In this document: in pieces, positions 11,620 through 31,156 of the stretch | Numbering within the stretch: the first letter of the stretch is position 1 | How the letters are laid out: each line of letters begins with the position of its first letter | The notes under the pieces: model-generated | What the model saw: only the letters and a program-made list of their open reading frames with translations | Told to the model about the DNA's origin: nothing | The model's database searches: none | Translations under genes and position numbers: made by a program | Source of the DNA: Fibrobacteria bacterium | Lineage (GTDB): Bacteria > Fibrobacterota > Chitinivibrionia > Chitinivibrionales > FEN-1185 | DNA length: 64,000 bases | Assembly (NCBI GenBank): GCA_037447435.1 | Contig: JBBIGR010000026.1 | Span: 1-64,000 of the forward strand | Direction: 5' to 3'

Positions 11620-11723
11620 TTCACATTTAATTGGAAACATTTTAACTTTTTTATGGTAAAATAATGTTAAATTAAATGTATTTATGGTTTATTGTAAAAT
11701 ATGTTCCAAATTTATTGGAAACA
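11620..11723. promoter_or_regulatory. Pair of motif-A sites upstream of the beta-helix gene
   Basis: TGGAAACA at 11632 and 11716, 84 bp apart; TTCCA-N7-TGGAA at 11704-11720; GTAAAATAATG at 11656. Confidence 0.55.
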
Positions 11724-11780: not shown

Positions 11781-13022
11781 TTAAAACGCAAACGGATCAG
11801 CGCCATTTATTCCGATATCATCGATCCAGATTTCAGTTGAATCGTAAATCGTGAATGCGAGCATTTCCATTTGTGCGGCAAGTTGTTTCCAATGCAAATT
11901 GGCTGTATTAAATGGAGCGACATCCGGAATCCATGAATCATCGGTGTTGAGAACAAATGTTTGCCACTGCGGGGTTAAGGTGATTTCTTTTTCAAGGTCG
12001 CGTACTGCGCCGAATTGCGCCCTAAACGGAACCGAAAAAAAACGTACCGTAATCTTGCCGCTCCCTTTGGCCCTGAATTGCAATGATTGCATGGGCGATA
12101 GATTGGCAAAAGTGTTTTTACCCGATCGGTCACTGGTGAGATCGAGGCCGAAACTGACGTTATTGTGAAACCCCGTATCTGCTTTGCCAATAATATGCAA
12201 AACCGTGCTCAGACCATCGGTAACGTGTCCGCTGTCTGGAATTGTCGGGGCGATGCTGCTTACTCCTGCTCCGTTGACCCACGTAATCCAGTTTGCGCGT
12301 CGCGTCCAGGCTGCAAACGGCCTATTTACTCCGGTTTTTTCAAAATCATCGAGCACAAATTCGGCTCCGGTGTCAAGCCGAATGGAAAATGTGGTGTCTT
12401 TGTCGGGCATATCGATTATCAAATGGCGAAGCGGGACAACGTCGTTATATACCGTCAATACTTGCAAACCCCTGGGAACCGGGGTAAGGGTAAAATTGGT
12501 TCCGGTTCCGGTTATCGTGTCTGCAAGGCTCGTTCCCCGGAGCGTTGCGTATGGTGATTGCGTTGACGAAGGAATTCCCGAAATCGTCCCGTTTATCGAT
12601 AATCCGGGTTTAAGGGTGTCCTGCAACGTGACCGTTACTTTCGAAGAGTCGAGTAAAAACAATCGGTTCGATGCAATTGCTATCGCGTTGCCCGCACTGT
12701 TCTGCATGCTTAACAAATAATTACCCATGGGCATAACTATTGGAGAAAGCTCGAAGCGTCCCGCTTCATCAAGCGCAAAAACGAACCTTTTACGGAAAGA
12801 ATTTGTTTGGGTCCGGTCGCCGGCGATTTCGGATGAAATTGTCAATGCGATAGTGTCTACAAGTAGATTGACATCGGACAGAATAGTGCCGCGGATTGTA
12901 ACTTCCGCGGTAGATTCTCCGGCATCGCTTCCTTTGCCCGTTACCTGGGTTGAAGTGCAGGAAAGCGAGCACAGCACACTGAAAATGGTTGAAATGACTA
13001 TTGTCCGTATATTCCTATTCAT
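11781..13022 (-). CDS. Lipoprotein with C-terminal CBM11/CIA30-like carbohydrate-binding domain (partner of TIGR02147 gene 1)
   Basis: Lipobox LCSLSC; VLDDFE...NLSPMQSLQFRAKGSGKITVRF...ITLTPQWQTF...IWIDDI. Start overlaps the upstream stop by 8 nt. Confidence 0.7.
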   Translation of the reverse strand: MNRNIRTIVISTIFSVLCSLSCTSTQVTGKGSDAGESTAEVTIRGTILSDVNLLVDTIALTISSEIAGDRTQTNSFRKRFVFALDEAGRFELSPIVMPMGNYLLSMQNSAGNAIAIASNRLFLLDSSKVTVTLQDTLKPGLSINGTISGIPSSTQSPYATLRGTSLADTITGTGTNFTLTPVPRGLQVLTVYNDVVPLRHLIIDMPDKDTTFSIRLDTGAEFVLDDFEKTGVNRPFAAWTRRANWITWVNGAGVSSIAPTIPDSGHVTDGLSTVLHIIGKADTGFHNNVSFGLDLTSDRSGKNTFANLSPMQSLQFRAKGSGKITVRFFSVPFRAQFGAVRDLEKEITLTPQWQTFVLNTDDSWIPDVAPFNTANLHWKQLAAQMEMLAFTIYDSTEIWIDDIGINGADPFAF

Positions 13023-13866
13023 CCGATGATCTCCCTTTGACTTTTGCGCGAGGCAACAACTGGAACCCGACATGGCATACGCGGTCGGGTGCATTGTCCT
13101 GCCATTGCAAAGCTAAAAGCTTTTGACGGAAAAGGCGTATTTCTTCACGAACTTTATCGAATCCTTGTTTACTTAAGGAAAGCGTGACCGAAGAATACGG
13201 CCGGTCTTCCGGATCAAGCGCGTCGAAAGCGTGTAAATCCAATTCAAGGTTTTTTTTATGAAACTGCGTCAACACGGTTGAATGTACTACCGGCGGTGTG
13301 GAAATCGTTTCTTCGGTGGAATGATACCTGCCGTCTTCCGTCTTGGCAAGAAAACCGGTTTCGACAAGATATTTAACCGCGCTTTTTACCTGTGATTCCT
13401 TGAGCGGCGGCATGAGCATTCGTGCCAATAGCCCGTAGTCTTCTTTAAAATCGACCATATCGACCAGGTCGCGCACAACGGGATAATACCATTTCGAAAA
13501 ATAACGGCTTTTCCGGTCGTCAAGAGTTTTTCCGCCGTGCACGGATCGTATCGACAGCAATTCAGTGAGAAAGCCGGCCTTTTTATCGGGGTTTTTCTCA
13601 TTGCAGAATCGGACTAGTGTTTCGAAATACCTCGAATCAATGACTTTAAGCCTGAGCGCACGGATAAAATTTTGTATGTACTTTGGGGAAAGCTTTCGTT
13701 GGCCGTTGATCACTCTGACGCAATACGCCGAACCTTCTATACCCGCATCTTTTAAAAAGATTCTGTGCGAGAATGCCGTATCGGTTTCTTTGCGCCAAGC
13801 GAAATAGGCACGCAGATAGTCGCGATATTCGAAAAAGGAAAAAACCGATGGCTCCTGCGCGATCAT
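13015..13866 (-). CDS. TIGR02147 family protein (N-terminal HTH-like region, DUF4423), paralog 1
   Basis: SVFSFFEYRDYLRAYF, FSHRIF..AGI..SAY...VINGQRKLS, YFSKWYYPVVRDL, RPYSSVTLSLS, VCHVGFQLLP. Confidence 0.88.
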   Translation of the reverse strand: MIAQEPSVFSFFEYRDYLRAYFAWRKETDTAFSHRIFLKDAGIEGSAYCVRVINGQRKLSPKYIQNFIRALRLKVIDSRYFETLVRFCNEKNPDKKAGFLTELLSIRSVHGGKTLDDRKSRYFSKWYYPVVRDLVDMVDFKEDYGLLARMLMPPLKESQVKSAVKYLVETGFLAKTEDGRYHSTEETISTPPVVHSTVLTQFHKKNLELDLHAFDALDPEDRPYSSVTLSLSKQGFDKVREEIRLFRQKLLALQWQDNAPDRVCHVGFQLLPRAKVKGRSSDE

Positions 13867-14219
13867 TATTTTCCCGTCGTTTGTTGCATACTCATTGTTT
13901 TGTTTCCATTTTTTTAAGCGTATACACACTTTATTATAGTTGAATTTAGAAAAATATCCAATAAAAATTATGAATTACTAAAAATATTTGTTTCCATATA
14001 TAATGTATATGTCTAAAACTTATATGAGGTACTGGGCAATTTATTATCAATAAAATTTCAACCTGTAAATGATTTTTTAACAAAATCAAGGCATTTTACC
14101 GTAAACCCCGTATATTTATAAAAGCCTGTGTACAAAATAAAGCTTAAGCGATTAACCAAAAGTGATGTCTTTGAAGGGGGAAAATTGTGAATTATTCATG
14201 CACGAACAGGTTCAATACT

Positions 14220-15905
14220 ATGTACGATCGACACAATATCGGTATAGCACTTATCATCCACCTGATAATTTGTATGAATGTGTTTAGCGCAACGTTTACC
14301 GTAAATTCCGCAAGTACGTTTTCGGCAGCTCAAAATAATGCCGTGGCCGGCGATGTGATCGTTTGGACAAATGGAACATATTCGGGAGTTGGCTTAACAC
14401 TCAACAAAAAGGGCATTACCCTTAAACCTGAAAAGGCCGGCGGCGTCATTTTCAATGGAAATTCGAGCGTCGTAATCAGCGGCAGTAACATCACCGTCGC
14501 CGATTTACAATATGTAAACTGCGCCAACACCGGTTCGTCGCCATGCATAAACATTACAGGAAGCAATAACACGCTTGCCGGAATAAATATGAATACCTGT
14601 AGTTCTTATAATTATGTAAAGGTGACCGCCGGAGCCCAATACAATGAGATTTCGAATTGCAATTTTCAAAACAAACCGGAAAATGCACCCAACAACAGCT
14701 TGATCGCGATTGACGAATCCGCAACGGTCCCCAATTATACTAAAATGCGGTATTGTTCATTTCAGCATTGTCCAGGTCCCGGCGGGGACTACGGAAATGA
14801 ACCGATACGGATCGGGCTGCGAGGCGGCTGCGTGTCACGATGCATCATTGAATATTGCTACTTTACCGATTTGGGAGGTTCTGACAATGAAACAATTTCC
14901 AATAAGGCTCTTGAAGATGTGGTCAGGTATTGCACTTTCGATAAGAATCCCTCGGCAGAGATAAGCCTTCGCCACGGAGGAAGGAATCAAATTTACGGTA
15001 ATTTTTTCATTAACAATTCAAAGGGCGTCGTCGTAAAGGAAGGCGACGGAAACATCATTTACAACAATTATTTCAGCACCTCATCTTTTGAACCGATAGT
15101 AATGGCTGTGGGCAATCCTTTATATTCGGTAACGCCGAACAATGCGTCCATAATCCATAACACGTTCTACAATTGCAAAACATCGGACGTGACAAATACG
15201 GTTTGCAAAAACACGAAATTTTTCGACAATATTTTTTACAATTCTCCGGTGAACGGAACCAACGGCAATGTGAGTTATATCGGGAATATCATTTCAGGAA
15301 GCTTTGGCATTTCTCTGCCATCGGGAAACAAAACCGCTGATCCGAAATTCACATTAAACGGCGACGGCTATTACTATTTAGGCGCGGGTAGTCCGGCCAT
15401 CGATGCGGCAAGTGCCGGATATTCTATTCCCGATATCGACAGCCTCGATGAAGATTTCAGAATTGGAAAGGATATAAGCGGAAAGACAAGGCCCGATTAG
15501 ATACAATTAAAAGATGTCGGCTGTTCTGAATATGGCGCGACAGGAACCGTTGTCAATAAACCATTAACCTTAAACGATGTCGGCCCGCTTTATTTACGTG
15601 TAGGACAAACGCAATCGATTAAAAATCCTGTTTTTAAAGGCACCGCGTTCGGTCTTTCATTGAACGTAAATCCGATTTCCCGCAAAGTCGATATTTCTTA
15701 TACCCTTTCAAAAGCATCGGTCGTCCAATTGAAGATCTTCAATGCACAAGGCCAGGCAGTCAAAATGTTGATTGATAAAGAAAAACAAAATGCCGGCCTG
15801 CATTCATATTCGTTTACTATGGCCGGACTTGGCAACAAGGTCTGTTTTGCCCGTTTTTCGGATGGGCTAAAAACGGAAACAGTCAAAGTTGTGACGGCAG
15901 AATAA
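14220..15905 (+). pseudogene. PL6-like (chondroitinase B/alginate lyase) beta-helix lyase with T9SS-like tail, interrupted by an in-frame TAG at 15498-15500
   Basis: AGDVIVWTNGTY, GNEPIRIG, ETISNK, ISLRHG motifs. The frame stays open after TAG (IQLKDVGCSEYG...PLTLNDVGP) into ORF 15660..15905. Confidence 0.8.
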
Positions 15906-16002
15906 TATCAAACGGTTATTTTCAAAGTCTTAACAATATCCGCAAAATGCCGCTGGAAAGATATTCCCCTGGGAACAACGGTGAGGTTGCGTAAATATTT
16001 GC

Positions 16003-16036
16003 AATAGGCAGTATTCAAGAATATATACTGCCTATT
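16003..16036. other. 12-bp inverted repeat (terminator or operator)
   Basis: AATAGGCAGTAT-N10-ATACTGCCTATT between the PL6-like gene and the 16129 gene. Confidence 0.5.
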
Positions 16037-16128
16037 AATTTGATCATACATTTCAGGCTCAAATCCACGGTGCTTTCGGGTAAATTCTTCCTAGGTCCTT
16101 CCCAAATTCTATATGTAAGGATGGTTTT

Positions 16129-19062: not shown

Positions 19063-19122
19063 AATTGCCGATTAAGAACGTAAAAGTAAATTTGCATTAC
19101 TTGTTTTAAGGGGGACTCTTTT

Positions 19123-20697
19123 ATGAGAATGTTGCGGCCTTTTCCGTTTGTATTTATGTTATCTTTTGTCATGAGTCTGGTTCTTGTTCCTGTTTTATTT
19201 TCCGCACAGGGAGCCGGCCCCAAGGGGACAGTCGTTCATTTTACTGTCCCGCATCTTCCTAATAGTCCAGGGATGACTCAGGACGGTCAATATTACTGTT
19301 GGCTTCCCGAAGGCACGGGCCCTTACCGCGCAATCATTTGCCATTTGCACGGCTGCGGCATGGATGGTACGGCCCCGTCGTTCATGAACGATGTCGGGTG
19401 GACCTCGCTTGCTAAAAAGTATCATGCAATCCTGATTGCACCTCAGTACTGCACGTGCGGCGACGCGATCGCCTGCCGCAATTGGTGTTATCCGGATCAG
19501 GGCAAGTCTCATTTAAATTGGGTCGCCGCGGTCGATACGCTTGCAAAGCGGACCAGCCATTCTGAAATCAGCACTATTCCTTGGTGCCTCTGGGGGCATT
19601 CCGGCGGCTCATGGTGGGCTGGAGTAGTAACCGACAAGTACCCGGAACGAACCTGCGCCTGTGTACAAAAATCCTATTGCACAAACATGACCAACCCGCT
19701 ATCGTACAAAGTTCTTGTTTTGCATCAGGACGGCGGTCCGCGGGATGTTGTTCAGGATGACGCCTGTTTTGCCGACGGACGAAGCCATAATGCTTTCTGG
19801 GCGCATAGTGTCGACCCCGGCACCGGTCATGATTGTGCCAACTCGCGCGAACTTGCCATTCCATGGTTTGATATGGCGATGGCTATGCGGCTGCCCGATT
19901 CGGCCGGTGGTCCTGCATCGAAGATGAAACCGGTTGATACAACGAGCGAATGGTTCGGTGACATGGGTTCCCACAATATCGCGCCGCTTCCATCGTTTAC
20001 AGGTAATAAAAACAACGCAAGCTGGTTCCCGAACAGCCGGATGGCCAGGTTATGGCGCACTTACAGTATCACGCCGAGCGGAGCGGGTCAAGTGAAAGAC
20101 TCTACACCACCGCCCAAACCATATAATGTGACCGGGACCTATTCCAATAATTCGATAGTCTTAAACTGGGACTGCGATGCAGATCTCGAAACCGGCATCA
20201 AGACATTCAATGTTTACCGTAATGGCACATTATTGAAAACCATGACCTACACCGGATCGTCCGGCTATCTCGGCACACCAGGATTTCAGGAGTATGGCTT
20301 TGGCGATGATCCAAACCCGAATCCTGCTCCTGCGATGACCTATACCGATGCAACGGTTTCGGGAACCGGGATCTACTCATACCAGGTAAGCTGCATCAAT
20401 TTTTCGAGCCTCGAGGGAATGAAAAGCGACTCTATCGTATTGAAGAACTGCCAGGTAACGGTAATCAATACCTCCCGGATCCAGGCATCGGCGCCTTTCG
20501 CGCTCGTTTCGCGCTGCTGGAACCTTGACAACGGCAAGATCAGTCTCAGAGCCGGCCTTGTTGATATGTACGATATTCGCGGACGGCAACTGAAAACCGT
20601 TGCTCTTACGGCCGATGGCTTGATTGACCTGAGATCGCTTCTTGGAGCCTCGGCGGCCGAGAAGGTAATTGTGGTGAAGAATCGAGCCATGTACTAA
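19123..20697 (+). CDS. Secreted alpha/beta-hydrolase (esterase-like) with FN3-like domain and T9SS-like tail
   Basis: HLHGCG oxyanion segment, WGHSGG nucleophile elbow, PGTGH, FN3-like LNWD...FNVYRNG...YSYQVS. Confidence 0.65.
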   Translation: MRMLRPFPFVFMLSFVMSLVLVPVLFSAQGAGPKGTVVHFTVPHLPNSPGMTQDGQYYCWLPEGTGPYRAIICHLHGCGMDGTAPSFMNDVGWTSLAKKYHAILIAPQYCTCGDAIACRNWCYPDQGKSHLNWVAAVDTLAKRTSHSEISTIPWCLWGHSGGSWWAGVVTDKYPERTCACVQKSYCTNMTNPLSYKVLVLHQDGGPRDVVQDDACFADGRSHNAFWAHSVDPGTGHDCANSRELAIPWFDMAMAMRLPDSAGGPASKMKPVDTTSEWFGDMGSHNIAPLPSFTGNKNNASWFPNSRMARLWRTYSITPSGAGQVKDSTPPPKPYNVTGTYSNNSIVLNWDCDADLETGIKTFNVYRNGTLLKTMTYTGSSGYLGTPGFQEYGFGDDPNPNPAPAMTYTDATVSGTGIYSYQVSCINFSSLEGMKSDSIVLKNCQVTVINTSRIQASAPFALVSRCWNLDNGKISLRAGLVDMYDIRGRQLKTVALTADGLIDLRSLLGASAAEKVIVVKNRAMY

Positions 20698-20765
20698 ACA
20701 ATCATAAGTATAAGCACAATCCAGCTTATTCTCATACCCCCTCACGCCTGGCCTCTCTCTTTTCC

Positions 20766-21264
20766 ATGCCCAAGCATGCGGCCGAATCATTTTGGCGGCC
20801 TGCGGAGTGCATCAAACGCGAATCCCGATATATGCCTCTCGATTCTATTGTCAATGTCCGTTTCATTAAAGTGAGCAATGAAGGTGCGATGCCGGCGGGC
20901 GGCAAATTTGCAATACGCGACTTGCGGGTTTTTGGAAATGGAAATTGCGGTCCTCCACCCGGTGTTGCGTCGTTCACGGTTTCTTGGAGTGCATCGGACA
21001 AAAGAATGGCAACTATAAGTTGGCCGAAAGCAGCCAATGTCGATGGATATATTCTGCCGGATTCAATCTACTAAATTCTATACCGTTATTGGTAATCGGT
21101 TTAGTGTACCCGCGGACATTTCCGGAAAAACCGTTTCAAAAGTATATGACAGTTCCGGGAAGCTTATTTACAGCGGGGTTGCCAATAATGGATTTATCGA
21201 TATCTCAGGAAATAATAAAAAAATCAACTGCGTGTTGTTCTTAAGCTTTTCGCCGAAACGTTAA
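20766..21264 (+). pseudogene. Gene remnant: F5/8-type plus FN3 fragment (as in C-termini of GH43 proteins) and, in another frame, a T9SS-like tail
   Basis: RFIKVSNEGAMPAGGKFAIRDLRVFGNG...ATISWPKAANVDGY, then VYDSSGKLIY in a different frame. No signal peptide or catalytic domain. Confidence 0.55.
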
Positions 21265-21440
21265 TATCGATTGATTGCCTGCCCTTTAATTTTCTTCTAA
21301 CTCGAAGTTGGAATTGCCGGAATAGGAGATTCCTTATGCAATTATTGGGCACAAAATAATTTTAAAAAAATAAGTAACTAATATTAATTAATGTATAATA
21401 CAATGAAAATAAACAAGATATAAAAGATAATAATATGAAA

Positions 21441-21459
21441 TGGGCACAAAATGTGCCCG
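21441..21459. promoter_or_regulatory. Motif-B palindrome TGGGCACA-AAA-TGTGCCCG upstream of TIGR02147 gene 2
   Basis: Near-perfect inverted repeat; a second copy of TGGGCACAAAAT at 21346-21357; TATATT at 21510. Confidence 0.65.
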
Positions 21460-21543
21460 GAAAAAATGTCATTATGCAAAAATTATCTCGTTATAAAGAA
21501 GGTTCTGTTTATATTACTATGAATACTCATTCGGGAGCCTTTT

Positions 21544-22392
21544 ATGGCAAATAAGAAATTGAACATTTATACTTACAACGATTTCAGAACGTATTTGGCC
21601 GATTATTTCGAAAATCGGCGACAGCAAATGAGATCGTTTTCAATTCGCTATTTTGCCCAAAAAGCCGGTATTGCTTCCCATAGTTTTATTTCTGCGGTCA
21701 TTAAAGGGAAAAGGAACCTGACTCCAGATGTCAAACAAAAATTCGCGCAGGGTTTAGGATTTGATCAAAACGAGCTTCGGTATTTTAATTTGCTCGTCGA
21801 TTTTAACCAGGCAAAACTTTCCCAGGAAAAACAAGATCTTTTTGAACAACTTAATGGTTTGCGGCGAAATACGTCTTTTTACAAATTGAATAAAGCCCAT
21901 TATGAATACATGGCGAAATGGTATCATTTCGTCATACGCGAACTTGCGGTATACGCCCCATGGAACGGCGACTACAATCGCCTCGCATCAATAGTGTTGC
22001 CCCGGATTTCCGAATCGGAAGCCAAGGCTGCCGTAAAATTGCTTATGGAAATAGGCGTTCTGTATCGCAAAGACGATGGACATTATTGTCAAACCGATAA
22101 AATCGTTTCAACGCAGGACATTCCGGGACATCTTGTCAAACAGGCCCGCAGGCAGTTTATCGAACTTTCGGTACGCGCATCTGATGAAATAAATCCGAAC
22201 GTGCGGAATTTAGGCTCTACAACGTTGACTTTAACCAAGAAGAATTATTCCAAAGCGGTTGAAATTATGGAAGAAGCACGACGAAAGCTTATCGTGTTAT
22301 CTCAAGACGAGACATCGGTCGACCGGGTTTATCAGGCGCATTTGCATCTGTTTCCATTAAGTAAAGAAATAGATTCTGCGGAGGAATCATGA
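21544..22392 (+). CDS. TIGR02147 family protein, paralog 2
   Basis: NIYTYNDFRTYLADYF, FSIRYFAQKAGIASHSFISAVIKGKRNLT, YMAKWYHFVIREL, RNLGSTTLTL, VYQAHLHLFPL. Confidence 0.9.
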   Translation: MANKKLNIYTYNDFRTYLADYFENRRQQMRSFSIRYFAQKAGIASHSFISAVIKGKRNLTPDVKQKFAQGLGFDQNELRYFNLLVDFNQAKLSQEKQDLFEQLNGLRRNTSFYKLNKAHYEYMAKWYHFVIRELAVYAPWNGDYNRLASIVLPRISESEAKAAVKLLMEIGVLYRKDDGHYCQTDKIVSTQDIPGHLVKQARRQFIELSVRASDEINPNVRNLGSTTLTLTKKNYSKAVEIMEEARRKLIVLSQDETSVDRVYQAHLHLFPLSKEIDSAEES

Positions 22393-24050
22393 AACGACAT
22401 GCCTTTTTCTTTGCGGCCCTGGTAACGGTATGCCTGTGCATGCTGCGCTGTTCAACAGGTAAATTGGCGGGTGCAACAGACATGCCCAATGAACAAACCA
22501 CGATAACCGCCGGCATTCTCTACGGACCCGACAGACCGGCTTCCGGGGTGACCATAATGGTCGTTCCTTCCGAATATCTTGCGCCAATTCCGGGAAACCT
22601 CGGCAAGACGCAGCGTTTTATTGCGAGAACAACAACCGACGAATCGGGAAATTTTTACGTGGATTCCCTTGATAACGGCGATTACGTCATTGAGGCGAAC
22701 GATGAAAAAAGCGCGGCGTGCGTCATACGGTGCCAAATTGACAATGGAATAAAAAACAGGAAACTCGGCGTCTTTACGATTAAGCCTTTTGGGGCAATCG
22801 CGGGGAAAATCGACACCGCGGGAGGTTCGGGAATTACGCGGTATGTTCAAATTTTCGGCTTAAACAGAGTTGCTTTGGTCAAAGCCGACGGAACATTTGG
22901 TTTCGACAGCATTCCGGCCGACACGTTCACACTGCGGATTACCTGCCTCGATTCGACGAAATTACCGGTTTTGTATTCGACAGTGCAGACCCGCGCCGGG
23001 GAAACCGTTCCCGATTATCCGGGATTAAATCTCTCCAAACAGGTGTTTCTCAATACCACGGTCGGCGGGGCAAATGTGCCGGCAAACGTTTATAATTTTC
23101 CCGTGCTCGTTCGCTTAACAAACAGCAATTTTATGTTTAACAGGGCGCAACCCAAAGGGCAGGACTTGAGAATAATAAAATCGAACGGAACTTTGCTTCC
23201 CTTTGAAATAGAACAATGGGACAGTGCTGCCGGGCTTGCCGAGATTTGGGTGAAAGTCGATACCGTGTTTGGAAATAATAATTCGCAAAATTTCTGGTTG
23301 TTTTGGGGAGCGGGTACGGCCGGTACGGTGCACGCCTCATTGTCCAACGGCGCAACGGTATTCGATACGGCAAACGGATTTCAGGGTGTTTGGCATATGG
23401 GACAAACAACCGGCTCGGTTGTCAACGACGCAACGGTCAATCATTTCGATGCCACTCCTTCGGATACGGCTCCTGTTTCGGTTGCGGGCGTCGTTGGGGC
23501 TGCCGCGCAATTCGACGGGGTTTCAAGCTTTTTGACCATGAAAGCAACGGCATCCGGAAAATTGAATTTTCCCGAGCAAGGAATCTATATGGTTTCCGCA
23601 TGGGTAATGGCCGATACATTGAAAACCGGCGACAATTTACAGCGTCAATATATCCTGCAAAAAGGCAACAATCAGTATACGCTGCAATTGAGTAATTCGC
23701 AAAACTGGGATTTTGGCGAATACGAAAGTGCAAATAGATGGAGTTATACTGCAAGCCCGGGTACTGCCCATGTGTGGTCGCATATTGCCGCGGTCAGGAT
23801 AAACAGTAAAATGTACTTGTATGTCAACGGCATTTGCGCGGACAGCACCGTGAAATTCATTCCGCTTACCGAAGCGCGCAGTACCGATGCCGATTTGGTT
23901 ATCGGAAAGCACGCAGGAGCGGCTTTTACCTCCTATTTTGCCGGTAAAGTGGATGAAGTACGCATTGAAAACAGTGCGGTGGGGGCCGATTGGATCCGAT
24001 TGTGTTATATGAACCAAAGGATCGACGATAAGCTTACTCAAATAAAGTAA
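22389..24050 (+). CDS. Lipoprotein with carboxypeptidase-regulatory-like, DUF2341 and LamG/concanavalin-A lectin-like domains (partner of TIGR02147 gene 2)
   Basis: ATGA overlap; Cys-containing lipobox region (CMLRC); NFPVLVRL...GQDLR...FEIEQWD...IWVKV; WSHIAAV...LYVNG...YFAGKVDEVRI. Confidence 0.8.
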   Translation: MKRHAFFFAALVTVCLCMLRCSTGKLAGATDMPNEQTTITAGILYGPDRPASGVTIMVVPSEYLAPIPGNLGKTQRFIARTTTDESGNFYVDSLDNGDYVIEANDEKSAACVIRCQIDNGIKNRKLGVFTIKPFGAIAGKIDTAGGSGITRYVQIFGLNRVALVKADGTFGFDSIPADTFTLRITCLDSTKLPVLYSTVQTRAGETVPDYPGLNLSKQVFLNTTVGGANVPANVYNFPVLVRLTNSNFMFNRAQPKGQDLRIIKSNGTLLPFEIEQWDSAAGLAEIWVKVDTVFGNNNSQNFWLFWGAGTAGTVHASLSNGATVFDTANGFQGVWHMGQTTGSVVNDATVNHFDATPSDTAPVSVAGVVGAAAQFDGVSSFLTMKATASGKLNFPEQGIYMVSAWVMADTLKTGDNLQRQYILQKGNNQYTLQLSNSQNWDFGEYESANRWSYTASPGTAHVWSHIAAVRINSKMYLYVNGICADSTVKFIPLTEARSTDADLVIGKHAGAAFTSYFAGKVDEVRIENSAVGADWIRLCYMNQRIDDKLTQIK

Positions 24051-24102
24051 ATCGCTGTTCATAATGAATATTTGTAAACTTCATGCCCTATAAGGAGGCA
24101 TT

Positions 24103-26517
24103 ATGAAGCCGGAATACCGTATTGTCTTTTCAATGAAAAAAAACGCTCATTCAATCGGTTTGGTTCTTTTTACGGCATTAACGCTTTCGTATGCCGCTCC
24201 GACGGCATTTCGCGTGCGCGCTCCGGACAGCGTATGGACAAAAGCGCATATGCCGGTATTTACATGGGATGCCAGTGCCGGTGCGGATCAATATGAGCTT
24301 TGGATCGACGGAGTCAGGAGCGTACAAGGTATTACGAAGACCAACCAGACTGCGACGCAAAATCTTTCCGACGGAAGACATGTATGGTTTGTTAAGGCAA
24401 TCGGCGGCGGAGTTGCCCAAAGCAGCGTTGACACCGCATCCTTCAATATCGGATCTGCCCCGGCACATCTGTGGGACTATACCGACGGTTTCGAAAGAGG
24501 CGATTTGGGCGATTACGTGTCCGACGGCATTGCAATATCCAATACCGGGATAAACGGCGCAAAATCGGCTTCATATCAAACAACGTCTTCAACCGCAATG
24601 CATTATGCGTTCAATCCGGTATTTACCAATACGCAAGAAGCGGAAGCGTCGGTGCTGTTTAGTCTCGATGATGCGAATGCCGATGTGGGCGTCGGCTTTG
24701 CGGAGGAAAACGGCGTGTGGTGTTATGCGATGATAGACAGAGTAAATAAAAGCATCAATATAGAACGTCGTGCATCCTATCCGATCGGCCCGCACACGCA
24801 ATCCGGTTTTACTCGGTCAAACTGGACCGAACGTCAGGAAAACGGCTTTTATATTTGGTGTTCCGATACGCAACCAATGCCGCCGCTATCGCAGGCGACA
24901 ACGTATCGTTTGAAATTTCAAATGTCGAACCGGTTACCCTCTATGGGAAAAGCCGCTCAGGCGATCGTTGAAAAAGCAGACGGTACGGTGCTGTGTTCGG
25001 TCCGAAGCTTCCTTGATGATGTTTTTGCGCCGCATCCGTTGTTTATCATTAAAGGCGGTAACGCCCGCGTGGATGATTTCCGTTTTCAACTTCTTGACAG
25101 GTGGTCATACAATTGGAAGCCGCATCAGGGGCCGATCAATCCGGCCTGGAGCGGGTTCAATCCTGCCGTCTGGCGAGATGCAAACAAAAAATGGTGGATG
25201 ACTTCGAGAACCGACAACAAGATACGCTGGAGTACCGATGGAGTCAACTGGTCGACTCAGACCGCCAATGCGCCGCCGGTATCCATTATGGACCCTGCCG
25301 TTCTCGGCATGAACGGCACGCCGTTTAACGACGGGAGAACATACCTTGCTTCATGCAACGGTTGTTGCAGTGCGCCGGTCGAAATTTTTTACGCGACCGA
25401 TCCGGCAACCGGCAACTGGACAAAATGGGGAGAACATGCGGGGCTTCCCGATTGCGGTCGGGAACATGTTTTTTTCGACACGAAAGATTGGCCCACGCTT
25501 GCCCCTATTTCCTACAACGGGACAAATTACCGGTTTCTCAGTATTCTCGAAGGCGATGTCGGGCATGGCGGCAGCACGATGATTAAATTGTCGAACGACG
25601 AAGTGAATTACACGAAAATCGAATGTGCCGATTTATACGGAAACGCCGCAAATAATCCGTTACAATTAAAAAACCTCTGGATGGAAGAATGCCTGAATTC
25701 GGCAACAAGCTGCGCTATGGCACTCGACAGCAATATCCGGGTTATGGGCTTTAAAGACGGTATGCGTTATGAAAAAGCAATTCCGCAGGAAATAATGCTC
25801 GATGGAAAACAACCCTGGAAAGTAAAGGCGTTTCAAACCATACCCGGCTTTCCCTATTATTGGGGGGATTGGCATAAGGTAAGAGATAAAGCCGGTGCTT
25901 CTTGGTATGGCGGCAAATACGAATGGCCTTCTTGCTTTGTCTGGGTGCCGGAAGAAAAACAAGTTTATTGCTATTGGGGCGAAGAGAATACGATAAACCT
26001 GTCCACTGCACTTGTCGTACCGGAGTTCGCGTGCGCGTCACTGTCGACCGATACCTCGACAATCGACCCAACTTCCCAGTTCCGCGTCACTGCGACATTA
26101 TGGAATTTCGGCGATGAAGCGGGTAATGATACGGTCAAACTGCTCAGCGACGGGGCACTGGTAGACACGCGTGTGTTGCATCTCAATGCAAATACCGATT
26201 CGACCATTGTGTTCAGTTTAACGGCAATGTCGGGCGGCGTTCATGTACTGGCAATTGACAATCGTAAAACAAGCGTGTTTGTGACGGGTTCGTCGGCAGT
26301 GGCGAAGTCGGGTATTGTTTCCATGCCTGCATTTAAACCGAATCTTCCGTATTCGATCAGAATATTCGACTTGTTGGGAAAAAACGTACGCACGATACTT
26401 TCGGATCGTGATGAAATTAATTCGGTAACGCTCTTACAGCGGTACGCTCACGGTGTTTATGTGGCAAATATCTATCGGAACGGAATATTGACAAAGAAAC
26501 AAGTACTGCTTCGGTGA
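24103..26517 (+). CDS. Secreted multidomain protein, possible five-bladed beta-propeller glycosidase, with CARDB-like domain and T9SS-like tail
   Basis: Signal peptide; FNPAVWRD...WSTDGVNW...MDPAV propeller-type motifs; VTATLWNFGDEAG CARDB-like; IFDLLGKNVR tail. Confidence 0.5.
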   Translation: MKPEYRIVFSMKKNAHSIGLVLFTALTLSYAAPTAFRVRAPDSVWTKAHMPVFTWDASAGADQYELWIDGVRSVQGITKTNQTATQNLSDGRHVWFVKAIGGGVAQSSVDTASFNIGSAPAHLWDYTDGFERGDLGDYVSDGIAISNTGINGAKSASYQTTSSTAMHYAFNPVFTNTQEAEASVLFSLDDANADVGVGFAEENGVWCYAMIDRVNKSINIERRASYPIGPHTQSGFTRSNWTERQENGFYIWCSDTQPMPPLSQATTYRLKFQMSNRLPSMGKAAQAIVEKADGTVLCSVRSFLDDVFAPHPLFIIKGGNARVDDFRFQLLDRWSYNWKPHQGPINPAWSGFNPAVWRDANKKWWMTSRTDNKIRWSTDGVNWSTQTANAPPVSIMDPAVLGMNGTPFNDGRTYLASCNGCCSAPVEIFYATDPATGNWTKWGEHAGLPDCGREHVFFDTKDWPTLAPISYNGTNYRFLSILEGDVGHGGSTMIKLSNDEVNYTKIECADLYGNAANNPLQLKNLWMEECLNSATSCAMALDSNIRVMGFKDGMRYEKAIPQEIMLDGKQPWKVKAFQTIPGFPYYWGDWHKVRDKAGASWYGGKYEWPSCFVWVPEEKQVYCYWGEENTINLSTALVVPEFACASLSTDTSTIDPTSQFRVTATLWNFGDEAGNDTVKLLSDGALVDTRVLHLNANTDSTIVFSLTAMSGGVHVLAIDNRKTSVFVTGSSAVAKSGIVSMPAFKPNLPYSIRIFDLLGKNVRTILSDRDEINSVTLLQRYAHGVYVANIYRNGILTKKQVLLR

Positions 26518-26771
26518 ATATACCGATATGGTGCCGCGAACCCAGGATTGGTACTATATGGCGAGGCTTTCGTATTATTTCTAAACCTTTGCTTGCCGTT
26601 TTGCTTTTGCTTCGAAGGAAAATCGCTCAATGAACAAATCCAGTCTCGTTTAATTTTATATAATCCCCTTAAATTAGCTAAATTAAACGGTAAAGTCTTT
26701 TACCGGAATTTGCGTTCAATTTTATAAAAAGATCTGGGGTTTTTGCATCCTATGCATGGGATAATTACAGT

Positions 26772-27290
26772 ATGAATGCGAACAGCTTTGTGAAGCTTTT
26801 AATAATCCTTTTTTTCAATATTTCGGGAGTGGCACAGCAAATTACGGTAGAAGATTTTGTAAAAAAATCCGACGTGAAACCGGCCATCGGGACCAGGGGT
26901 AGTCTTAAAAATACGAAAGTAGCTCCTGTCAACAAACACATTCGTGCAATACCGTGCATCGACAATAACGTTTTACGGCTTAGTATAGAAAACAAGGTGT
27001 CGTTCGTTCGGGTGACTCGAATCAATTTGCTGGGTAGGGCAATTGGCCCTTTGTTTGAGGGATTTCTTGAAAAAGGCCGGCACGATTTAGACCTTTCGAC
27101 TTATAAAACCGCAGCAAGAGTTTACTTTTTATCGGTTAATATCAACGGCAAAGAAACGTTTTTAAAAGTAATGCCCGGTATTACGTTAGTATTAGTTGCC
27201 AAATCGCCTTTAGCTATGCGACAATATGAAAATAGCGAATTTTGTGATAAATTTTATTCAATAGACAACCATTCGGACAAAGGAGCTTAG
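26772..27290 (+). CDS. Small exported hypothetical protein made largely of a T9SS-CTD-like domain (possibly truncated)
   Basis: Signal peptide; INLLGRAI...LEKGRH...VYFLSVNINGK. Stops 1 nt before the next start. Confidence 0.45.
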   Translation: MNANSFVKLLIILFFNISGVAQQITVEDFVKKSDVKPAIGTRGSLKNTKVAPVNKHIRAIPCIDNNVLRLSIENKVSFVRVTRINLLGRAIGPLFEGFLEKGRHDLDLSTYKTAARVYFLSVNINGKETFLKVMPGITLVLVAKSPLAMRQYENSEFCDKFYSIDNHSDKGA

Positions 27291-27291
27291 T

Positions 27292-28785
27292 ATGGTACAC
27301 AGCGCTTGTAAAACAATCAGGAAAATCGCGGTCGTCGGCGTCATATCACTATGCTTTTTTGCATCCGCGTGGGCTGCAAGCGGTCCCGGTGATGTCGTGG
27401 GCAAGATTACCGTCGGGTATCAGGGCTGGTTTGCCTGTCAGGGAGACGGCGCTCCCATAAACGGGTGGTGGCATTATACCCAGAATTGGGGGGCTGCTCC
27501 GTCGCCGACCAATCAGGGAATAAAATCATGGCCCGACATGCGGGAATACACAAAGAGCTATCAGACGGGGTATGCAAATCTCGGTAATGGACAGCCGGCG
27601 AAACTTTTTTCCTCATACGATCAGTCTACGGTTAATCTCCATTTCTTCTGGATGCATCAATATGGGATAGACTGTGCCGCATTGCAACGGTTCAACCCGT
27701 TCGGCGGCGAAGGACCCACGCGGGATTCGATGGCAAACAAAGTGAGAATAGCTGCGGAAGCCTATGGGGTAAAGTTTTACATCATGTACGACATAACCGG
27801 CTGGACGACCATGCAAGCCGATATAAAGACCGACTGGACAAATAAGATGTCGAAACTGACCGCATCGTCCATGTATGCCAAGCAGAACGACAAACCGGTG
27901 GTTTGCGTGTGGGGGCTTGCTTATAACGACGCAGGTCATCCGCAAACCGCCGCCGCCTGCATTGATATCGTGACGTGGCTAAAAAACCAGGGTTGCTACG
28001 TGATCGGCGGGACGCCGCGCGAATGGCGCACAAGAACCGACTTTCTCCCCATGTTGCACAGCCTCAATATGATTTCTCCTTGGTTAATCGGCGCCGTCGG
28101 GGACGTGGCCGGTTCGGACGGAATTTATACCAACTACTTTTTGCCCGATATTGCAGAATGCAATGCGAACGGCGTCGATTATCAGCCGTGCGTTTTGCCG
28201 GGCGACAATTCATTAAAGCAACGCGCGCACGGCGATTTTATGTGGCGAGAATTTTATAACGCCATCCGGGCGGGTTCCCAGGGCATTTACATCTCGATGT
28301 ACGACGAGTTCAACGAAGGGCATCAAATCTGCAAAACCGCGGAAGATGCCAGCATGATTCCGACCGGATCGAACTTTATCGGGTTGAGCCAGGAAGACGG
28401 GACCGTATGCTCATCCGATTATTATTTGCGCCTGACCGGAGACGGCGGTAAAATGCTGAAAAAGCAAATCGCATTGACCGCAACCCGACCGACACAACCC
28501 ACGGCCGCACTTGCGATAAAAAACGCCGACTGGGAAATGCAAGGTTTTAATAAAACGGTTTTATCGTTCGGCACTCATAAATCGCTTGTCTTGCCTGCAC
28601 GGTCGAGCGTCGTAACGGTTTACGATATGTGCGGGAAAATCGTTGCCAATATTCCTGTTGTCAATAATGTCGCGGCCTGGCACGGTACAAACTCGTATGG
28701 AAGGCCCGTATCGGCAGGCAGTTATGTCGCATGTGCGGTCGAGGGGAAAAACAGTATTGTAAAGACTTTTGTATTGGACCGATAG
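27292..28785 (+). CDS. GH71/GH99-like glycoside hydrolase with C-terminal FlgD-Ig/T9SS-like domain
   Basis: GYQGWF, WPDMREY, WMHQYGIDCAALQRF, FYIMYD, YISMYDEFNEG, SDYYLRLTG. Confidence 0.78.
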   Translation: MVHSACKTIRKIAVVGVISLCFFASAWAASGPGDVVGKITVGYQGWFACQGDGAPINGWWHYTQNWGAAPSPTNQGIKSWPDMREYTKSYQTGYANLGNGQPAKLFSSYDQSTVNLHFFWMHQYGIDCAALQRFNPFGGEGPTRDSMANKVRIAAEAYGVKFYIMYDITGWTTMQADIKTDWTNKMSKLTASSMYAKQNDKPVVCVWGLAYNDAGHPQTAAACIDIVTWLKNQGCYVIGGTPREWRTRTDFLPMLHSLNMISPWLIGAVGDVAGSDGIYTNYFLPDIAECNANGVDYQPCVLPGDNSLKQRAHGDFMWREFYNAIRAGSQGIYISMYDEFNEGHQICKTAEDASMIPTGSNFIGLSQEDGTVCSSDYYLRLTGDGGKMLKKQIALTATRPTQPTAALAIKNADWEMQGFNKTVLSFGTHKSLVLPARSSVVTVYDMCGKIVANIPVVNNVAAWHGTNSYGRPVSAGSYVACAVEGKNSIVKTFVLDR

Positions 28786-28837
28786 GGTGTTACGGACCGT
28801 TCGCTTTGGCGCTACAGTCAAGCGCTCAAATCCGTCT

Positions 28838-28867
28838 AAAACCTCGGTACTATACCGAGGTTTTTTT
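28838..28867. terminator. Bidirectional intrinsic terminator between convergent genes
   Basis: AAAACCTCGGTA-cta-TACCGAGGTTTT plus a T run. Confidence 0.8.
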
Positions 28868-30158
28868 ATTGTTTCAATACGTCGAGGCCGACACCGTTAA
28901 GGTAAAAATCGTCCAGATACAAATGGAGCGTATCGCCGATTGCATTGGTAAACCGGGAAAATTCGAATTCAACATCGATGATGTTTTTCGATTCCGTCGA
29001 CCACGGGTATTGTGATGCCGTCTGCAACGCCGGTAAAACCCGTAAGGAGTCTATGGGTATTTGCAAGTTTTGCCACGATGAAGTCAGGGTTATGGGGATC
29101 GTATAATCGGAAATACTTCTTGAAATACTGTCCAAAACTTTGGATTCGAATCGCACCCAGATTACCCCATTTCCCCGGACTTTAAGAGAAAAACTTTGCA
29201 TTGCCGACAAATCGATGCCGGTATTGACAAAAGGACGGAATGAAATGCCTGCCGTCGCGTAAGGCGCCGAATTGCAATTGCTGTCCAAAACGACGCTGAA
29301 CTCCATTGCCATTCCCGCTCCCGCGGCCCCAATGCCCGCAGTCACCGCGATAGAGGATTGGCACGACAGCGGCGGCGGATTCGTTGCCGAATGCAACGCC
29401 CAGGTCCAGGCATTGATTGTGTTATCCCATGACAATGTTCCCGATTCCGTAACCGCATACCAGTGTGCTTTACCGGGGAATATCGTTCCAAGCGACGTGG
29501 GGCCGACATTGGTTTCAAAATTGTCTAAAAGCATTCTGTCGGCGGCGCCATTCAGCGCGGTATCTGTTTTGACAATGCCGGATTCCAGGGTTATACCGCC
29601 GCAGGTGGTTATTGCAGGTGAAGATGATGACTTGTCGATTCCGAGCAATGCGTACGGTCCCGGGGCGACTTTACTGAAATTAAAAGACCCGTTTGCGGCC
29701 AATGCAGCCCGGTAGGCGGATCCGGCAAGAAACAGGCTGGAAAATGACGAAGCACCTTCGTGGAATGATCCGGCGTACGAGGCATATTGGTCGAGCCGCA
29801 GAGTATCGTTTTCGAGTTTTGCCCTTGTCTTGCCAGAGGCGAAATAGCCTTGGTCCGCATAGTCTATTTGCACGTTGACCGTGGCGTAATTGTCGTGTTT
29901 TCTCAGAGCGAAACGGCCGTCTTTATCCGCTACGGTGCTTTCGATAACCGCGGATGTTCCAAATTGCAAACTATCGAACCAGCCGTTCTCATCGATGATT
30001 CGGACCACGGCACCGCTTGCCGGCGTGCCGTTGGACAATACGGCATACGTATTGACCGTTTCCGTACCGCCGCCGCCGGTTGTCTGAGTTATTCCGCAAG
30101 ATAACAGGAATGCGATTAATACCGTTAGTACTGTTTTAGGCCGAAAGACAAGTATCAT
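28866..30158 (-). CDS. Lipoprotein with C-terminal CBM11/CIA30-like domain (partner of TIGR02147 gene 3)
   Basis: Lipobox FLLSC; LLDNFE...IDLSAMQSFSLKVRGNGVIWVRF...ITLTSSWQNL...LYLDDF, homologous to 11781..13022; ATGA overlap with the upstream gene. Confidence 0.75.
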   Translation of the reverse strand: MILVFRPKTVLTVLIAFLLSCGITQTTGGGGTETVNTYAVLSNGTPASGAVVRIIDENGWFDSLQFGTSAVIESTVADKDGRFALRKHDNYATVNVQIDYADQGYFASGKTRAKLENDTLRLDQYASYAGSFHEGASSFSSLFLAGSAYRAALAANGSFNFSKVAPGPYALLGIDKSSSSPAITTCGGITLESGIVKTDTALNGAADRMLLDNFETNVGPTSLGTIFPGKAHWYAVTESGTLSWDNTINAWTWALHSATNPPPLSCQSSIAVTAGIGAAGAGMAMEFSVVLDSNCNSAPYATAGISFRPFVNTGIDLSAMQSFSLKVRGNGVIWVRFESKVLDSISRSISDYTIPITLTSSWQNLQIPIDSLRVLPALQTASQYPWSTESKNIIDVEFEFSRFTNAIGDTLHLYLDDFYLNGVGLDVLKQ

Positions 30159-30991
30159 CGGCCCCCCCCGCCCGTTTTTTTATTACATGTTAAAGGAAAT
30201 ACCTGGAAGTTCAATTGATATACTTCCTCGGCATCGCCGTCCTTTTTCACCATTTCCATAATTTCGTGCCGGACTTCCGTCAATCTTTCCCGAATAGCCA
30301 CAAGGCAAGCGGCCGAGGTACTGAGGGTCAGCGTGGAAATATCGCGTTCCTCTTTGGGTATCCGTTCGATTGCCGACGCGGCGAGCTGACTCATTTCCCG
30401 TTGGAAGGCCCTGACTGCCATGGCGCGCGTCACGCCGTCGGAAGAAACGAATTGATCCGTGGCACGATATATCCCGTCTTTTTCCCGGACTACCATGCCG
30501 AGCTTTTCCAAAAGTTTCACCGAATTTTTTGCCTGCGCCGGAGTAATGGGCGGAAGCATTCGTGCCGCCAAATCGGAAAAATCACCTTTAAACGAAATTA
30601 CTTTTATCGCTTCCCACACCGCAACATTATGCCAGGAGGAGAAATATTCATAATTGTCTTTGTCTAGAGTTTTCGAAACCGGATTTCGCAACGCTAAAAG
30701 TTTTTCGAAATACAGCCGCTCCTGCTCCGGCCGTTTTGCCTTGTTGAAGCGGACAAGCGCCGCAAAATATTCGCCTTCACGTTTGTTTAGCTTCAGGAAT
30801 TCGATAAGTTTGGGAACCGCTGCTTCCGAAATGTGCTTCTGCTTGTTTAAAACTTTTACATAAAAACTCGCATCAAGCCCGGTTTTAAGAGAAATATACC
30901 GGAACGAAAAAAAACGCTGATTGTTTTTGCTGTCTTTATAATGATCCCGGAGATAATCCTGGTATTCCAGGTATTCGAAAATGTCTGTCAT
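30155..30991 (-). CDS. TIGR02147 family protein, paralog 3
   Basis: MTDIFEYLEYQDYLRDHY, FSFRYISLKTGLDASFYVKVL, YFSSWHNVAVWE, ERDISTLTLS, VYQLNFQVFPL; GGAG RBS before 30991. Confidence 0.9.
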   Translation of the reverse strand: MTDIFEYLEYQDYLRDHYKDSKNNQRFFSFRYISLKTGLDASFYVKVLNKQKHISEAAVPKLIEFLKLNKREGEYFAALVRFNKAKRPEQERLYFEKLLALRNPVSKTLDKDNYEYFSSWHNVAVWEAIKVISFKGDFSDLAARMLPPITPAQAKNSVKLLEKLGMVVREKDGIYRATDQFVSSDGVTRAMAVRAFQREMSQLAASAIERIPKEERDISTLTLSTSAACLVAIRERLTEVRHEIMEMVKKDGDAEEVYQLNFQVFPLTCNKKTGGGGR

Positions 30992-31138
30992 GGTTGTCTC
31001 CCAGGACGAATAACCGTTATTTTTTTGCCCATAGCCTTTTTGTGGAATAAAAACAAGCTTGGTTTGGCCACTTTCCTTATAGTATACGCTCAAACAGGCA
31101 AAAAATCATCATGATATGTGAAAGAACTCATTGTATCT

Positions 31139-31156
31139 GTGGAACAAAGGTTCCAC
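31139..31156. promoter_or_regulatory. Motif-C palindrome (putative operator), copy 1
   Basis: GTGGAAC-AAAG-GTTCCAC in the divergent gap between TIGR02147-3 and GH2; GGGAGA-N17-TATTTT (31208) downstream. Confidence 0.72.

Follow-up and report, generated by a model that had tools for sequence, protein, structure and literature searches.

TIGR02147 proteins, paired with envelope lipoproteins, as likely gene switches for polysaccharide breakdown in a Fibrobacterota genome

The 64,000-nt window analysed here is the whole stretch from position 1 to 64,000 of contig JBBIGR010000026.1, contig 26 of the 96-contig, 5.05-Mb assembly GCA_037447435.1 from a Fibrobacteria bacterium. It contains three cassettes, each of which pairs a gene of the TIGR02147 family with an overlapping lipoprotein gene. 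The TIGR02147 proteins, predicted transcription factors (TFs), are referred to as TF1, TF2 and TF3 and the lipoproteins as LP1, LP2 and LP3 (Table 1). The closest relatives of the window proteins are labelled Chitinivibrionales, Chitinispirillaceae or Fibrobacterota, depending on the source. Each TIGR02147 gene is preceded by a DNA motif of its own, and two of the three motifs recur before genes of sugar-degrading enzymes; thus, to judge from sequence, the TIGR02147 proteins are likely to be the gene switches that had been missing for the breakdown of polysaccharides in this group of bacteria. With a probability of roughly 65%, each cassette is an operon of a cytoplasmic TIGR02147 protein, likely a transcription factor acting on its own paralog-specific operator, and of an exported lipoprotein predicted to bind glycans at the cell envelope.

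All three TIGR02147 genes score well above the NCBIfam cut-off of 50 bits (Table 1), the matches extending from model positions 1–3 to positions 270–271 of 272, and Pfam DUF4423 is found in the C-terminal half of TF1, TF2 and TF3 (E 2.7e-29, 4.5e-25 and 1.7e-29, respectively). An ATGA is common to the TF2 stop and the LP2 start (22389–22392) and likewise to TF3 and LP3 (30155–30158). The likely start of LP1 is the ATG at 13022, which gives an overlap of 8 nt with TF1. A signal peptide, a lipobox Cys and a Gly-rich segment are present in LP1, LP2 and LP3. An earlier note on this DNA had described the three genes, the overlap of each with a downstream lipoprotein gene, the Gly-rich segments quoted from behind each lipobox Cys, and a separate motif before each paralog. 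All of these are found as described, with motif A before TF1, motif B before TF2 and motif C before TF3.

Table 1. Positions of the three cassettes, the motifs before them and before other genes, the predicted targets, and the genes that follow LP2
Feature	Position	Strand	Remarks
TF1, TIGR02147 paralog, recognition helix EGSAYCVRVINGQRK	13015–13866	-	NCBIfam 235 bits; DUF4423
LP1, lipoprotein; C-terminal domain homologous to that of LP3	11781–13022	-	overlaps TF1 by 8 nt
TF2, TIGR02147 paralog, recognition helix ASHSFISAVIKGKRN; modelled protein	21544–22392	+	NCBIfam 251 bits; DUF4423
LP2, lipoprotein, CarboxypepD_reg-like + DUF2341 + LamG	22389–24050	+	ATGA overlap with TF2
TF3, TIGR02147 paralog, recognition helix DASFYVKVLNKQKH	30155–30991	-	NCBIfam 275 bits; DUF4423
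LP3, lipoprotein, Ig-like beta-sandwiches + CBM11/CIA30-like C-terminal domain	28866–30158	-	ATGA overlap with TF3
Motif A proximal, TGGAAACA on gene strand, before TF1	13901–13908	-	3′ of -10-like TATAAT 13938–13933
Motif A distal, TGGAAACA, before TF1	13989–13996	-	88 nt from proximal copy
Motif A pair, TGTTTCCA on gene strand, 11632–11639 + 11716–11723, 84 nt apart	11632–11723	-	before gene 10079–11545
Motif A pair, 9913–9920 + 9997–10004, 84 nt apart	9913–10004	-	before GH2 gene 7802–9844
Motif B distal, TGGGCACAAAAT	21346–21357	+	before TF2
Motif B proximal, TGGGCACAAAAT extended to dyad GGGCACA-AAA-TGTGCCC	21441–21459	+	before TF2
Motif C dyad GTGGAAC-N4-GTTCCAC, between TF3 and divergent GH2 gene	31139–31156	.	
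Extra TTCCAC half-site, 3′ of -10-like box of TF3	31042–31047	-	
Motif C dyad, one mismatch, 110 nt before GH3 gene	39850–39867	.	
Motif C dyad, 139 nt before second GH3 gene	42357–42374	.	
Motif C dyad, 145 nt before GH5 gene	48440–48457	.	
Predicted motif A target, GH2 glycoside hydrolase	7802–9844	-	
Predicted motif A target, secreted beta-helix-type protein	10079–11545	-	weak DUF1565, DUF5123 and T9SS-tail matches
Predicted motif C target, GH2	31283–33637	+	
Predicted motif C target, GH3	39960–42350	+	
Predicted motif C target, GH3	42496–44868	+	
Predicted motif C target, GH5 cellulase-family enzyme	48585–49790	+	
Three co-directional genes 3′ of LP2 (804, 172 and 497 aa; no clear family)	24103–28785	+	Pfam scan

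Genome-wide motif counts cover all 5.05 Mb of the assembly. Motif C occurs in five exact copies, against about 0.02 expected by simple arithmetic for 14 fixed bases; all five are intergenic, three of them within the window, and a sixth copy carries one mismatch. For motif A the genome-wide number of intergenic copies is 30, of which six are located in three intergenic regions of the window (234, 235 and 353 nt), grouped as three pairs on the same strand with spacings of 84, 84 and 88 nt; one further such pair is found in the genome and is intragenic. Relative to the gene, the pair at TF1 is oriented opposite to the other two pairs. The 12-mer of motif B is present twice in the genome, both times before TF2. 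GGGCACA and GGGCATA are retained in a 66% metagenome ortholog of TF2, and TGTGCCC in a 56% ortholog; TF2 orthologs are rare, with 2 of 80 other genomes of the order and one close metagenome locus, which leaves motif B with thin support. A sigma-54 promoter (GG-N10-GC spacing) was considered for motif B and dropped, as the site is a dyad of which a relative keeps the half-site alone. Rfam (at gathering thresholds) and ARAGORN gave no match over the window; the upstream regions are not accounted for by any known riboswitch or other known RNA.

The six motif C sites are located 96–173 nt before genes encoding glycoside hydrolases (GH) of families GH2, GH3, GH3 and GH5 in the window and, elsewhere in the genome, before a GH16 gene and the gene of a CarboxypepD_reg-led protein of 755 aa. 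In a relative, genome G007, the TF3 ortholog has an identical recognition helix, and seven one-mismatch motif C dyads are present vs one for the reversed control pattern. One of these seven stands upstream of both the TF ortholog and a GH26 gene in divergent orientation; the others precede GH5, GH43 and GH26 genes, two DUF5060 genes and one major facilitator superfamily (MFS) gene. With motif A before a GH2 gene as well, two of the three motifs recur before genes of carbohydrate-active enzymes (CAZymes), as the earlier note had said, and the tie to carbohydrates stands for two of the window's three cassettes. At the target genes the motif C dyad is found about 45–75 nt upstream of a -10-like box, a position typical of activators, which suggests that the targets are activated. 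An extra half-site at or just after the -10 box is apparent at TF1, at TF3 and in a class of paralogs with a GTTCAC dyad (see below), suggesting negative autoregulation of these TF promoters. Of the motif A pair at the GH2 gene 7802–9844, the proximal copy overlaps a -35-like hexamer. Additionally, a lone GTGGAAC half-site, with no dyad, is located at 7527–7533, 131 nt before a GH20 gene (5471–7396, minus strand), and a D-Ala-D-Ala ligase gene (47376–48419, plus strand) stands within the glycoside hydrolase cluster just 5′ of a motif C dyad.

This genome contains 27 TIGR02147 loci, one of them frameshift-split and one truncated. The frameshift-split paralog (C28:60972–61804, minus strand) matches model positions 1–180 and 171–271 in two frames, and the partner lipoprotein gene 3′ of it is still intact. 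Many of the paralogs have a private repeat or dyad before a common TATATT-type -10-like box. The dyad GTTTTC-N5-GAAAAC is present in 17 copies, 13 of them intergenic, on contigs C1, C4, C5, C12, C13, C14, C31, C32, C52, C59 and C87. This dyad may well be the operator of the most conserved TIGR02147 class. Its sites are found before three VIT or VIT/VWA genes and before TonB-receptor-like, radical-SAM, GT87, flagellar hook and other genes, which suggests a regulon that is wider and non-carbohydrate; the TF of this class has a Kelch lipoprotein partner. The dyad of another paralog is located between the TF and a GH9+CBM3 cellulase gene. The earlier note had proposed a carbohydrate-sensing system. 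A regulatory link to carbohydrates stands for the CAZyme genes behind motifs A and C, and the proposal is too narrow for the family, which has other paralogs with predicted non-carbohydrate targets.

The recurrence of motifs before further genes also bears on a simpler arrangement, in which a TF autoregulates its own lipoprotein operon only; the operon would then be a variable envelope cassette with no tie to carbohydrates, and the recurrence incidental. Motif B, found only before TF2, would fit such an arrangement, as would the dyads of two other paralogs (C34, C10) that are unique in the genome and the patchy distribution of relatives: at E<=1e-75, TF2 has relatives in 2 of 80 other genomes of the order, and the best same-genus match of TF3 is about 49% identical. 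However, motifs A and C and the dyads of three other paralogs recur before further genes at fixed distances, and every motif C site, six in this genome and seven in G007, stands in front of a glycan-related gene or of the TF itself. A switch confined to its own operon is accordingly regarded as very unlikely. For TF2 and TF3, moreover, the closer relatives are in other families of the order and not in the five genomes of the same genus, a distribution that suggests turnover or transfer of cassettes.

Support for the TIGR02147 proteins as DNA-binding regulators, much stronger than that from repeat and dyad counts in this genome, comes from a set of 147 TIGR02147 TFs from 41 genomes, for each of which the upstream 300–350 nt and the N-terminal 90 residues were taken and which were grouped by recognition helix. 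Each helix group has an upstream dyad of its own, and the spacing to the start codon is similar. The groups were drawn after enriched k-mers had been seen, and the counts per class are therefore post hoc: GTTTTC-N5-GAAAAC in 14 of the 15 members of the SSAGFFxN class vs 1/132 others, GTTCAC-N4-GTGAAC in 6/7 of its helix class vs 0/140 others, GT[GT]G-N9-11-CCAC in 10/12 of the helix group of TF3 vs 3/135 others, and GTAG-N10-CTAC in 7/11 of its helix class vs 1/136 others. Relatives of TF1 mostly have TGTTTCCA, TGTTGCCA or TGTTACCA upstream, depending on helix type. A test that uses no chosen groups agrees: among cross-family pairs (n=8475), an upstream 11-mer is held in common by 1.9% at helix identity <0.3 and by 20.8% at >=0.85, and in a 9-mer version of the test none of 500 label shuffles reached the observed value; common ancestry of relatives inflates both of these sharing statistics, yet intergenic DNA under no constraint would not be expected to persist across families at 40–65% protein identity. 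Covariation of motif and helix, which the earlier note had put forward as a check on its idea, is thus observed. That the upstream dyad changes with the recognition helix argues that TIGR02147 proteins bind their own operators, and the transcription factor part of the idea is well supported, with DNA binding predicted from covariation and position.

The same covariation bears on whether the motifs could instead be read by factors outside the TIGR02147 family, for example alternative sigma factors of the extracytoplasmic function (ECF) type or unrelated regulators. GTGGAAC and TGGAAAC presumably resemble the -35 elements of ECF sigma factors (GGAAC). Most of the motifs, however, are dyads or paired sites 74–133 nt apart, not -35/-10 pairs, and Pfam gave no sigma factor in the window. 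Because the motifs track the TIGR02147 recognition helix across genomes, a second and matching set of paralogous factors would be needed, and recognition by such other factors is considered extremely unlikely.

The AlphaFold2 model of TF2, made from an alignment of 35 family members, has a mean pLDDT of 85.5. Residues 11–95 of the model resemble XRE-type helix–turn–helix (HTH) domains (HigA, DdrO, 3pxp and 2eby) with VIA-align Z scores of 7.3–8.5 and root-mean-square deviations of 2.4–3.1 over 74–82 residues, where a Z under 8 may reflect a common arrangement and the match spans the whole domain. The XRE-type HTH that had been proposed for the TIGR02147 N-terminus is thus recovered, in the model, as a five-helix XRE fold, and the XRE-like G-K-R-N-L turn after the recognition helix is near-invariant among the 35 aligned members. 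Residues 117–196 resemble the winged helices of ArsR, MarR and HxlR (Z about 7) and are followed by two long helices and a conserved tail, ...LFPLS. Outside the HTH, residues W126, R132-E133-L134, R221 and F270-P271 are invariant across TF paralogs. None of TF1–TF3 reaches the Pfam HTH_3 gathering score of 23 bits, only TF2 giving a match (17 bits); a Foldseek search with the whole TF2 model returned no match at E<=0.001, and a profile search of Protein Data Bank (PDB) sequences gave weak HTH matches (E 0.11–0.22). Neither a signal peptide nor a membrane segment can be read from the sequences of TF1, TF2 and TF3.

Of the 201 genomes sampled from the phylum, 189 have the family, and all 14 control genomes are without it; the unpublished genome G194 enters only this phylum-wide count. 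Copy number reaches about 89 candidate loci in a single genome, and TIGR02147 is among the largest gene families of the phylum. Atlas clusters of TIGR02147 are commonest in Bdellovibrionota and Fibrobacterota.

The model of LP3 (pLDDT 83.3) is a chain of beta-sandwiches with a terminal CBM11-like domain. The best solved matches of this C-terminal domain are CBM11 structures (6r3m, 6r31 and 1v0a; Foldseek E 8e-9, TM 0.67–0.69 of the target), including a structure with bound mixed-linkage glucan, followed by CIA30/NDUFAF1 and CBM30, with E values of 8e-9 to 2e-7 for CBM11/CIA30. At full length LP3 matches chains of the Bacteroides surface glycan-binding protein SGBP-B. LP1 is homologous to LP3 in its C-terminal domain (28% identity over 111 aa, E 1e-8), and LP2 contains Pfam DUF2341 and Laminin_G_3. 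No Pfam match to CBM_11 (at E<=0.1) or to CIA30 was found in LP1 or LP3. The endings of sugar-binding type that the earlier note had assigned to the lipoproteins are therefore borne out by the predicted fold of LP3, by the homology of LP1 to it and by the DUF2341 and LamG domains of LP2, and sugar binding is accordingly a prediction from model and sequence.

Across this genome, a partner with a lipobox and a Gly-rich motif of the G-[ST]-E-T-x-N type is found at 24 of the 27 TF loci; it is the next gene in 23 of these, and in the remaining one the two are separated by the gene of a secreted protein. A strict regular expression for lipoproteins recognised no more than seven partners, and a hidden Markov model (HMM) of the N-terminal module was used for that reason. 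This N-module comprises the lipobox Cys, the post-Cys motif and the first beta-sandwich; its constant parts are the Cys, the invariant Glu of the G-[ST]-E-T-T-N-G motif and the first beta-sandwich itself. The HMM recovers 23 open reading frames at E<=2.4e-7 (the 22 seeds plus one), all of which are in TIGR02147 operons, and the next match, at 2.5e-5, falls on part of a contig that has no TF. With a second model, drawn mostly from other genomes, the module is detected in 69 of the 81 genomes sampled from the order. All 11 genomes without TIGR02147 are also without the N-module, and 69 of the 70 with TIGR02147 have it; the single exception is a genome in which only two TF matches occur. The export signal of Bacteroidetes lipoproteins, C-X-K-(D/E)2-X (PMC5080379), was tried as an account of the post-Cys motif and ruled out, since the motif of the TIGR02147 partners differs from it in sequence and position.

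The C-terminal ends of the partners are variable. Outside the window, 16 of 21 partner lipoproteins were scanned for domains: four have LamG (three of them with DUF2341), one has Kelch repeats, one has leucine-rich repeats (LRR), one has a weak CIA30 match (E 1.4e-4, below cut-off), three have two short sandwiches, and in six no domain could be recognised beyond the first ones. Fold and architecture are in keeping with a surface protein that captures glycans; however, a receptor accounts better than cargo for the strictly one-to-one pairing, for the constancy of the N-module and for the presence of a partner at non-carbohydrate paralogs.

If each cassette is such an operon, a TF dimer would bind its dyad, or paired half-sites about eight helical turns apart, about 85–170 nt before its own start codon, and would bind the same operator sequence where it stands before other genes. 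TF3 would control a beta-glucan-type set comprising the GH2, two GH3 and GH5 genes of the window together with, outside the window, the GH16 gene and a gene of outer-membrane type; the set under TF1 would be its own operon, the beta-helix protein gene and a GH2 gene, and that under TF2 its own operon only. The TFs would activate their targets and repress their own promoters. The lipoprotein would most likely act like a Bacteroidota surface glycan-binding protein, capturing polymer outside the cell, and the breakdown products of the polymer, once imported, may act on the second domain of the TF (winged helix plus helices). No path across the membrane is visible, and an inner-membrane permease is part of the predicted regulon in G007; an indirect route, with the inducer inside, is therefore preferred.

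Besides the effect of common ancestry given above, several observations weigh against the cassettes being operons of an operator-specific TF and a glycan-binding lipoprotein. An obvious repeat or dyad is present in only about a third of the 27 paralogs in this genome. Upstream repeats of at least 10 nt are found in 9/27 TFs vs 180/955 controls, in a longest-exact-repeat test that barely separates the two, and perfect 7-N4-7 dyads in 6/27 TFs vs 67/1224 controls, three of the six resembling terminators of neighbouring genes. Three near-identical relatives of TF1 have TGGAAACA and not the TGTTGCCA of their helix class. The dyads are assigned to the TF rather than to another factor by covariation and position, and the roles of activator and repressor are read from site position alone. 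The TF is without a recognisable small-molecule-binding domain, which makes a cytoplasmic inducer a guess. Finally, a lipoprotein that is merely co-regulated cargo fails to explain why a partner with the same N-module accompanies every paralog, including those with non-carbohydrate regulons and those with Kelch or LRR ends.

The main alternative is a sensor pair that spans the envelope, in line with the envelope glycan sensors of the earlier note; here the variable C-terminal domain of the lipoprotein would detect a ligand outside and the N-module would pass its state to the DUF4423 part of the TF through a common membrane component encoded elsewhere. One-to-one pairing, translational coupling and the matched presence and absence across the 81 genomes are in keeping with this, as are the receptor-like build of the lipoproteins (a constant N-module with CBM11-like, DUF2341+LamG, Kelch or LRR ends), the retention of the pairing in paralogs with non-CAZyme predicted targets and the invariant TF residues outside the HTH. 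On the other side, the TF is without a signal peptide or membrane segment and the mature lipoprotein is without a cytoplasmic part; among the Pfam-scanned window proteins no transducer, regulator or membrane sensor family is apparent apart from a PAS-SpoIIE protein, and the conserved post-Cys motif could equally be a sorting or tether signal. A sensor pair of this kind is on balance improbable. In its widest form, it would be a modular signalling system of the whole phylum: an acylated envelope receptor with swappable ligand-binding ends, matched one-to-one with a cytoplasmic double-HTH TF of swappable DNA specificity. The constant parts (Cys...G-[ST]-E-T-T-N-G and the DUF4423 core) would dock on a common membrane transducer, or the link would be a fragment of the lipoprotein precursor. 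This wider system is put forward tentatively, as a doubtful possibility; if true, it would take the role filled elsewhere by two-component, hybrid two-component and sigma/anti-sigma systems.

Several other genes of the window lie near the cassettes. The three genes at 24103–28785 may, judged by spacing alone, possibly belong to the LP2 operon. Weak matches to the type IX secretion system (T9SS) C-terminal sorting domain, below the Pfam cut-off, are found in unannotated proteins beside CAZyme genes at 10079–11545, 24103–26517, 51626–53218 and 59741–60583, and the GH16 protein on contig C19 likewise has a weak match to this domain. The gene at 1846–3618 (minus strand) encodes PAS and SpoIIE-type phosphatase domains and is the only other signalling-type protein that Pfam gave in the window. 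A protein of 940 aa (60920–63742, minus strand) carries Listeria-Bacteroides repeats, Ig domains and a Fib_succ_major domain, the mark of the other large paralogous family of the phylum, and a 933-aa fusion (56253–59054, plus strand) combines an MFS transporter with spermidine-synthase-like and tetratricopeptide repeat (TPR) regions.

If TIGR02147 proteins are local switches of glycan-degrading genes, the predicted operators and targets are directly testable for several paralog classes. The lipoprotein partner would represent either a new way in which a receptor at the envelope is coupled to a regulator in the cytoplasm, or a rule by which every regulator is accompanied by one surface protein that binds glycans. 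In both cases, loci for polysaccharide use in Fibrobacterota would become easier to read from sequence, much as SusC/SusD pairs help in Bacteroidota.

Polysaccharide utilisation loci of Bacteroidota, with their SusR, hybrid two-component, ECF/anti-sigma and SGBP-B components, resemble the cassettes in having one regulator per glycan locus and clustered GH genes. SGBP-B is likewise lipid-anchored, with Ig-like spacers and a terminal glycan-binding domain, and its chains are among the fold matches of LP3. The regulators differ: TIGR02147 is a small cytoplasmic protein without a periplasmic sensor and is translationally coupled to the lipoprotein. No SusD or TonB-receptor match was given by Pfam among the 36 window proteins scanned, no domain of a hybrid two-component system (periplasmic sensor, histidine kinase, receiver or AraC) was found in TF1–TF3 with NCBIfam or Pfam, and no sigma or anti-sigma domain was found by Pfam in the TFs, the lipoproteins or their neighbours.

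Clostridial SigI/RsgI systems consist of multiple paralogous regulator pairs, each tied to an extracytoplasmic carbohydrate-binding module and CAZyme genes. The TIGR02147 cassettes differ in being without a sigma-70 domain or a membrane-spanning anti-sigma factor and in carrying the binding module on a separate lipoprotein. The analogy that the earlier note drew to SigI/RsgI and to the hybrid two-component systems thus stands as a comparison in role only; the cassettes are, as it claimed, built from different parts, and none of the defining parts of those systems was found.

Among XRE-family HTH regulators, including HigA antitoxins, DdrO and phage repressors, the N-terminal 85 residues of TIGR02147 superpose, and the G-K-R-N-L turn and dyad operators are further points of likeness. 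TIGR02147 differs in adding a winged helix and two long helices, an arrangement not found among the matches, and in its HTH_3 score below threshold. RRNPP regulators (PlcR, PrgX and Rgg) are also cytoplasmic XRE-HTH proteins encoded beside an exported product, and the signal of enterococcal pheromones derives from a lipoprotein signal peptide; the TIGR02147 proteins differ from this group in being without a TPR domain. For the lipoproteins, the CBM11/CIA30 beta-sandwich is the closest structural relative of the LP3 C-terminal domain, a likeness by fold alone in that LP1 and LP3 differ from these families at the level of Pfam matches.

The nearest comparison is with the family itself, TIGR02147 ('Fsuc_second') and DUF4423 (PF14394), which TF1–TF3 match over the full model length. 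A literature keyword search found TIGR02147, DUF4423 or PF14394 only as a table entry, and the portions of the literature on Fibrobacter succinogenes regulators and lipoproteins that the search returned do not describe a TF–lipoprotein pair; the earlier statement that the family has no demonstrated function agrees with this search, which gave no functional account. To a family that has a name but no described function, the present analysis adds a fold, predicted operators, regulons and a lipoprotein partner, and to the earlier idea it adds the covariation of helix and operator, predicted CAZyme regulons of several genes that are conserved from one genus to another, and the finding, genome by genome, that TF and lipoprotein occur together.

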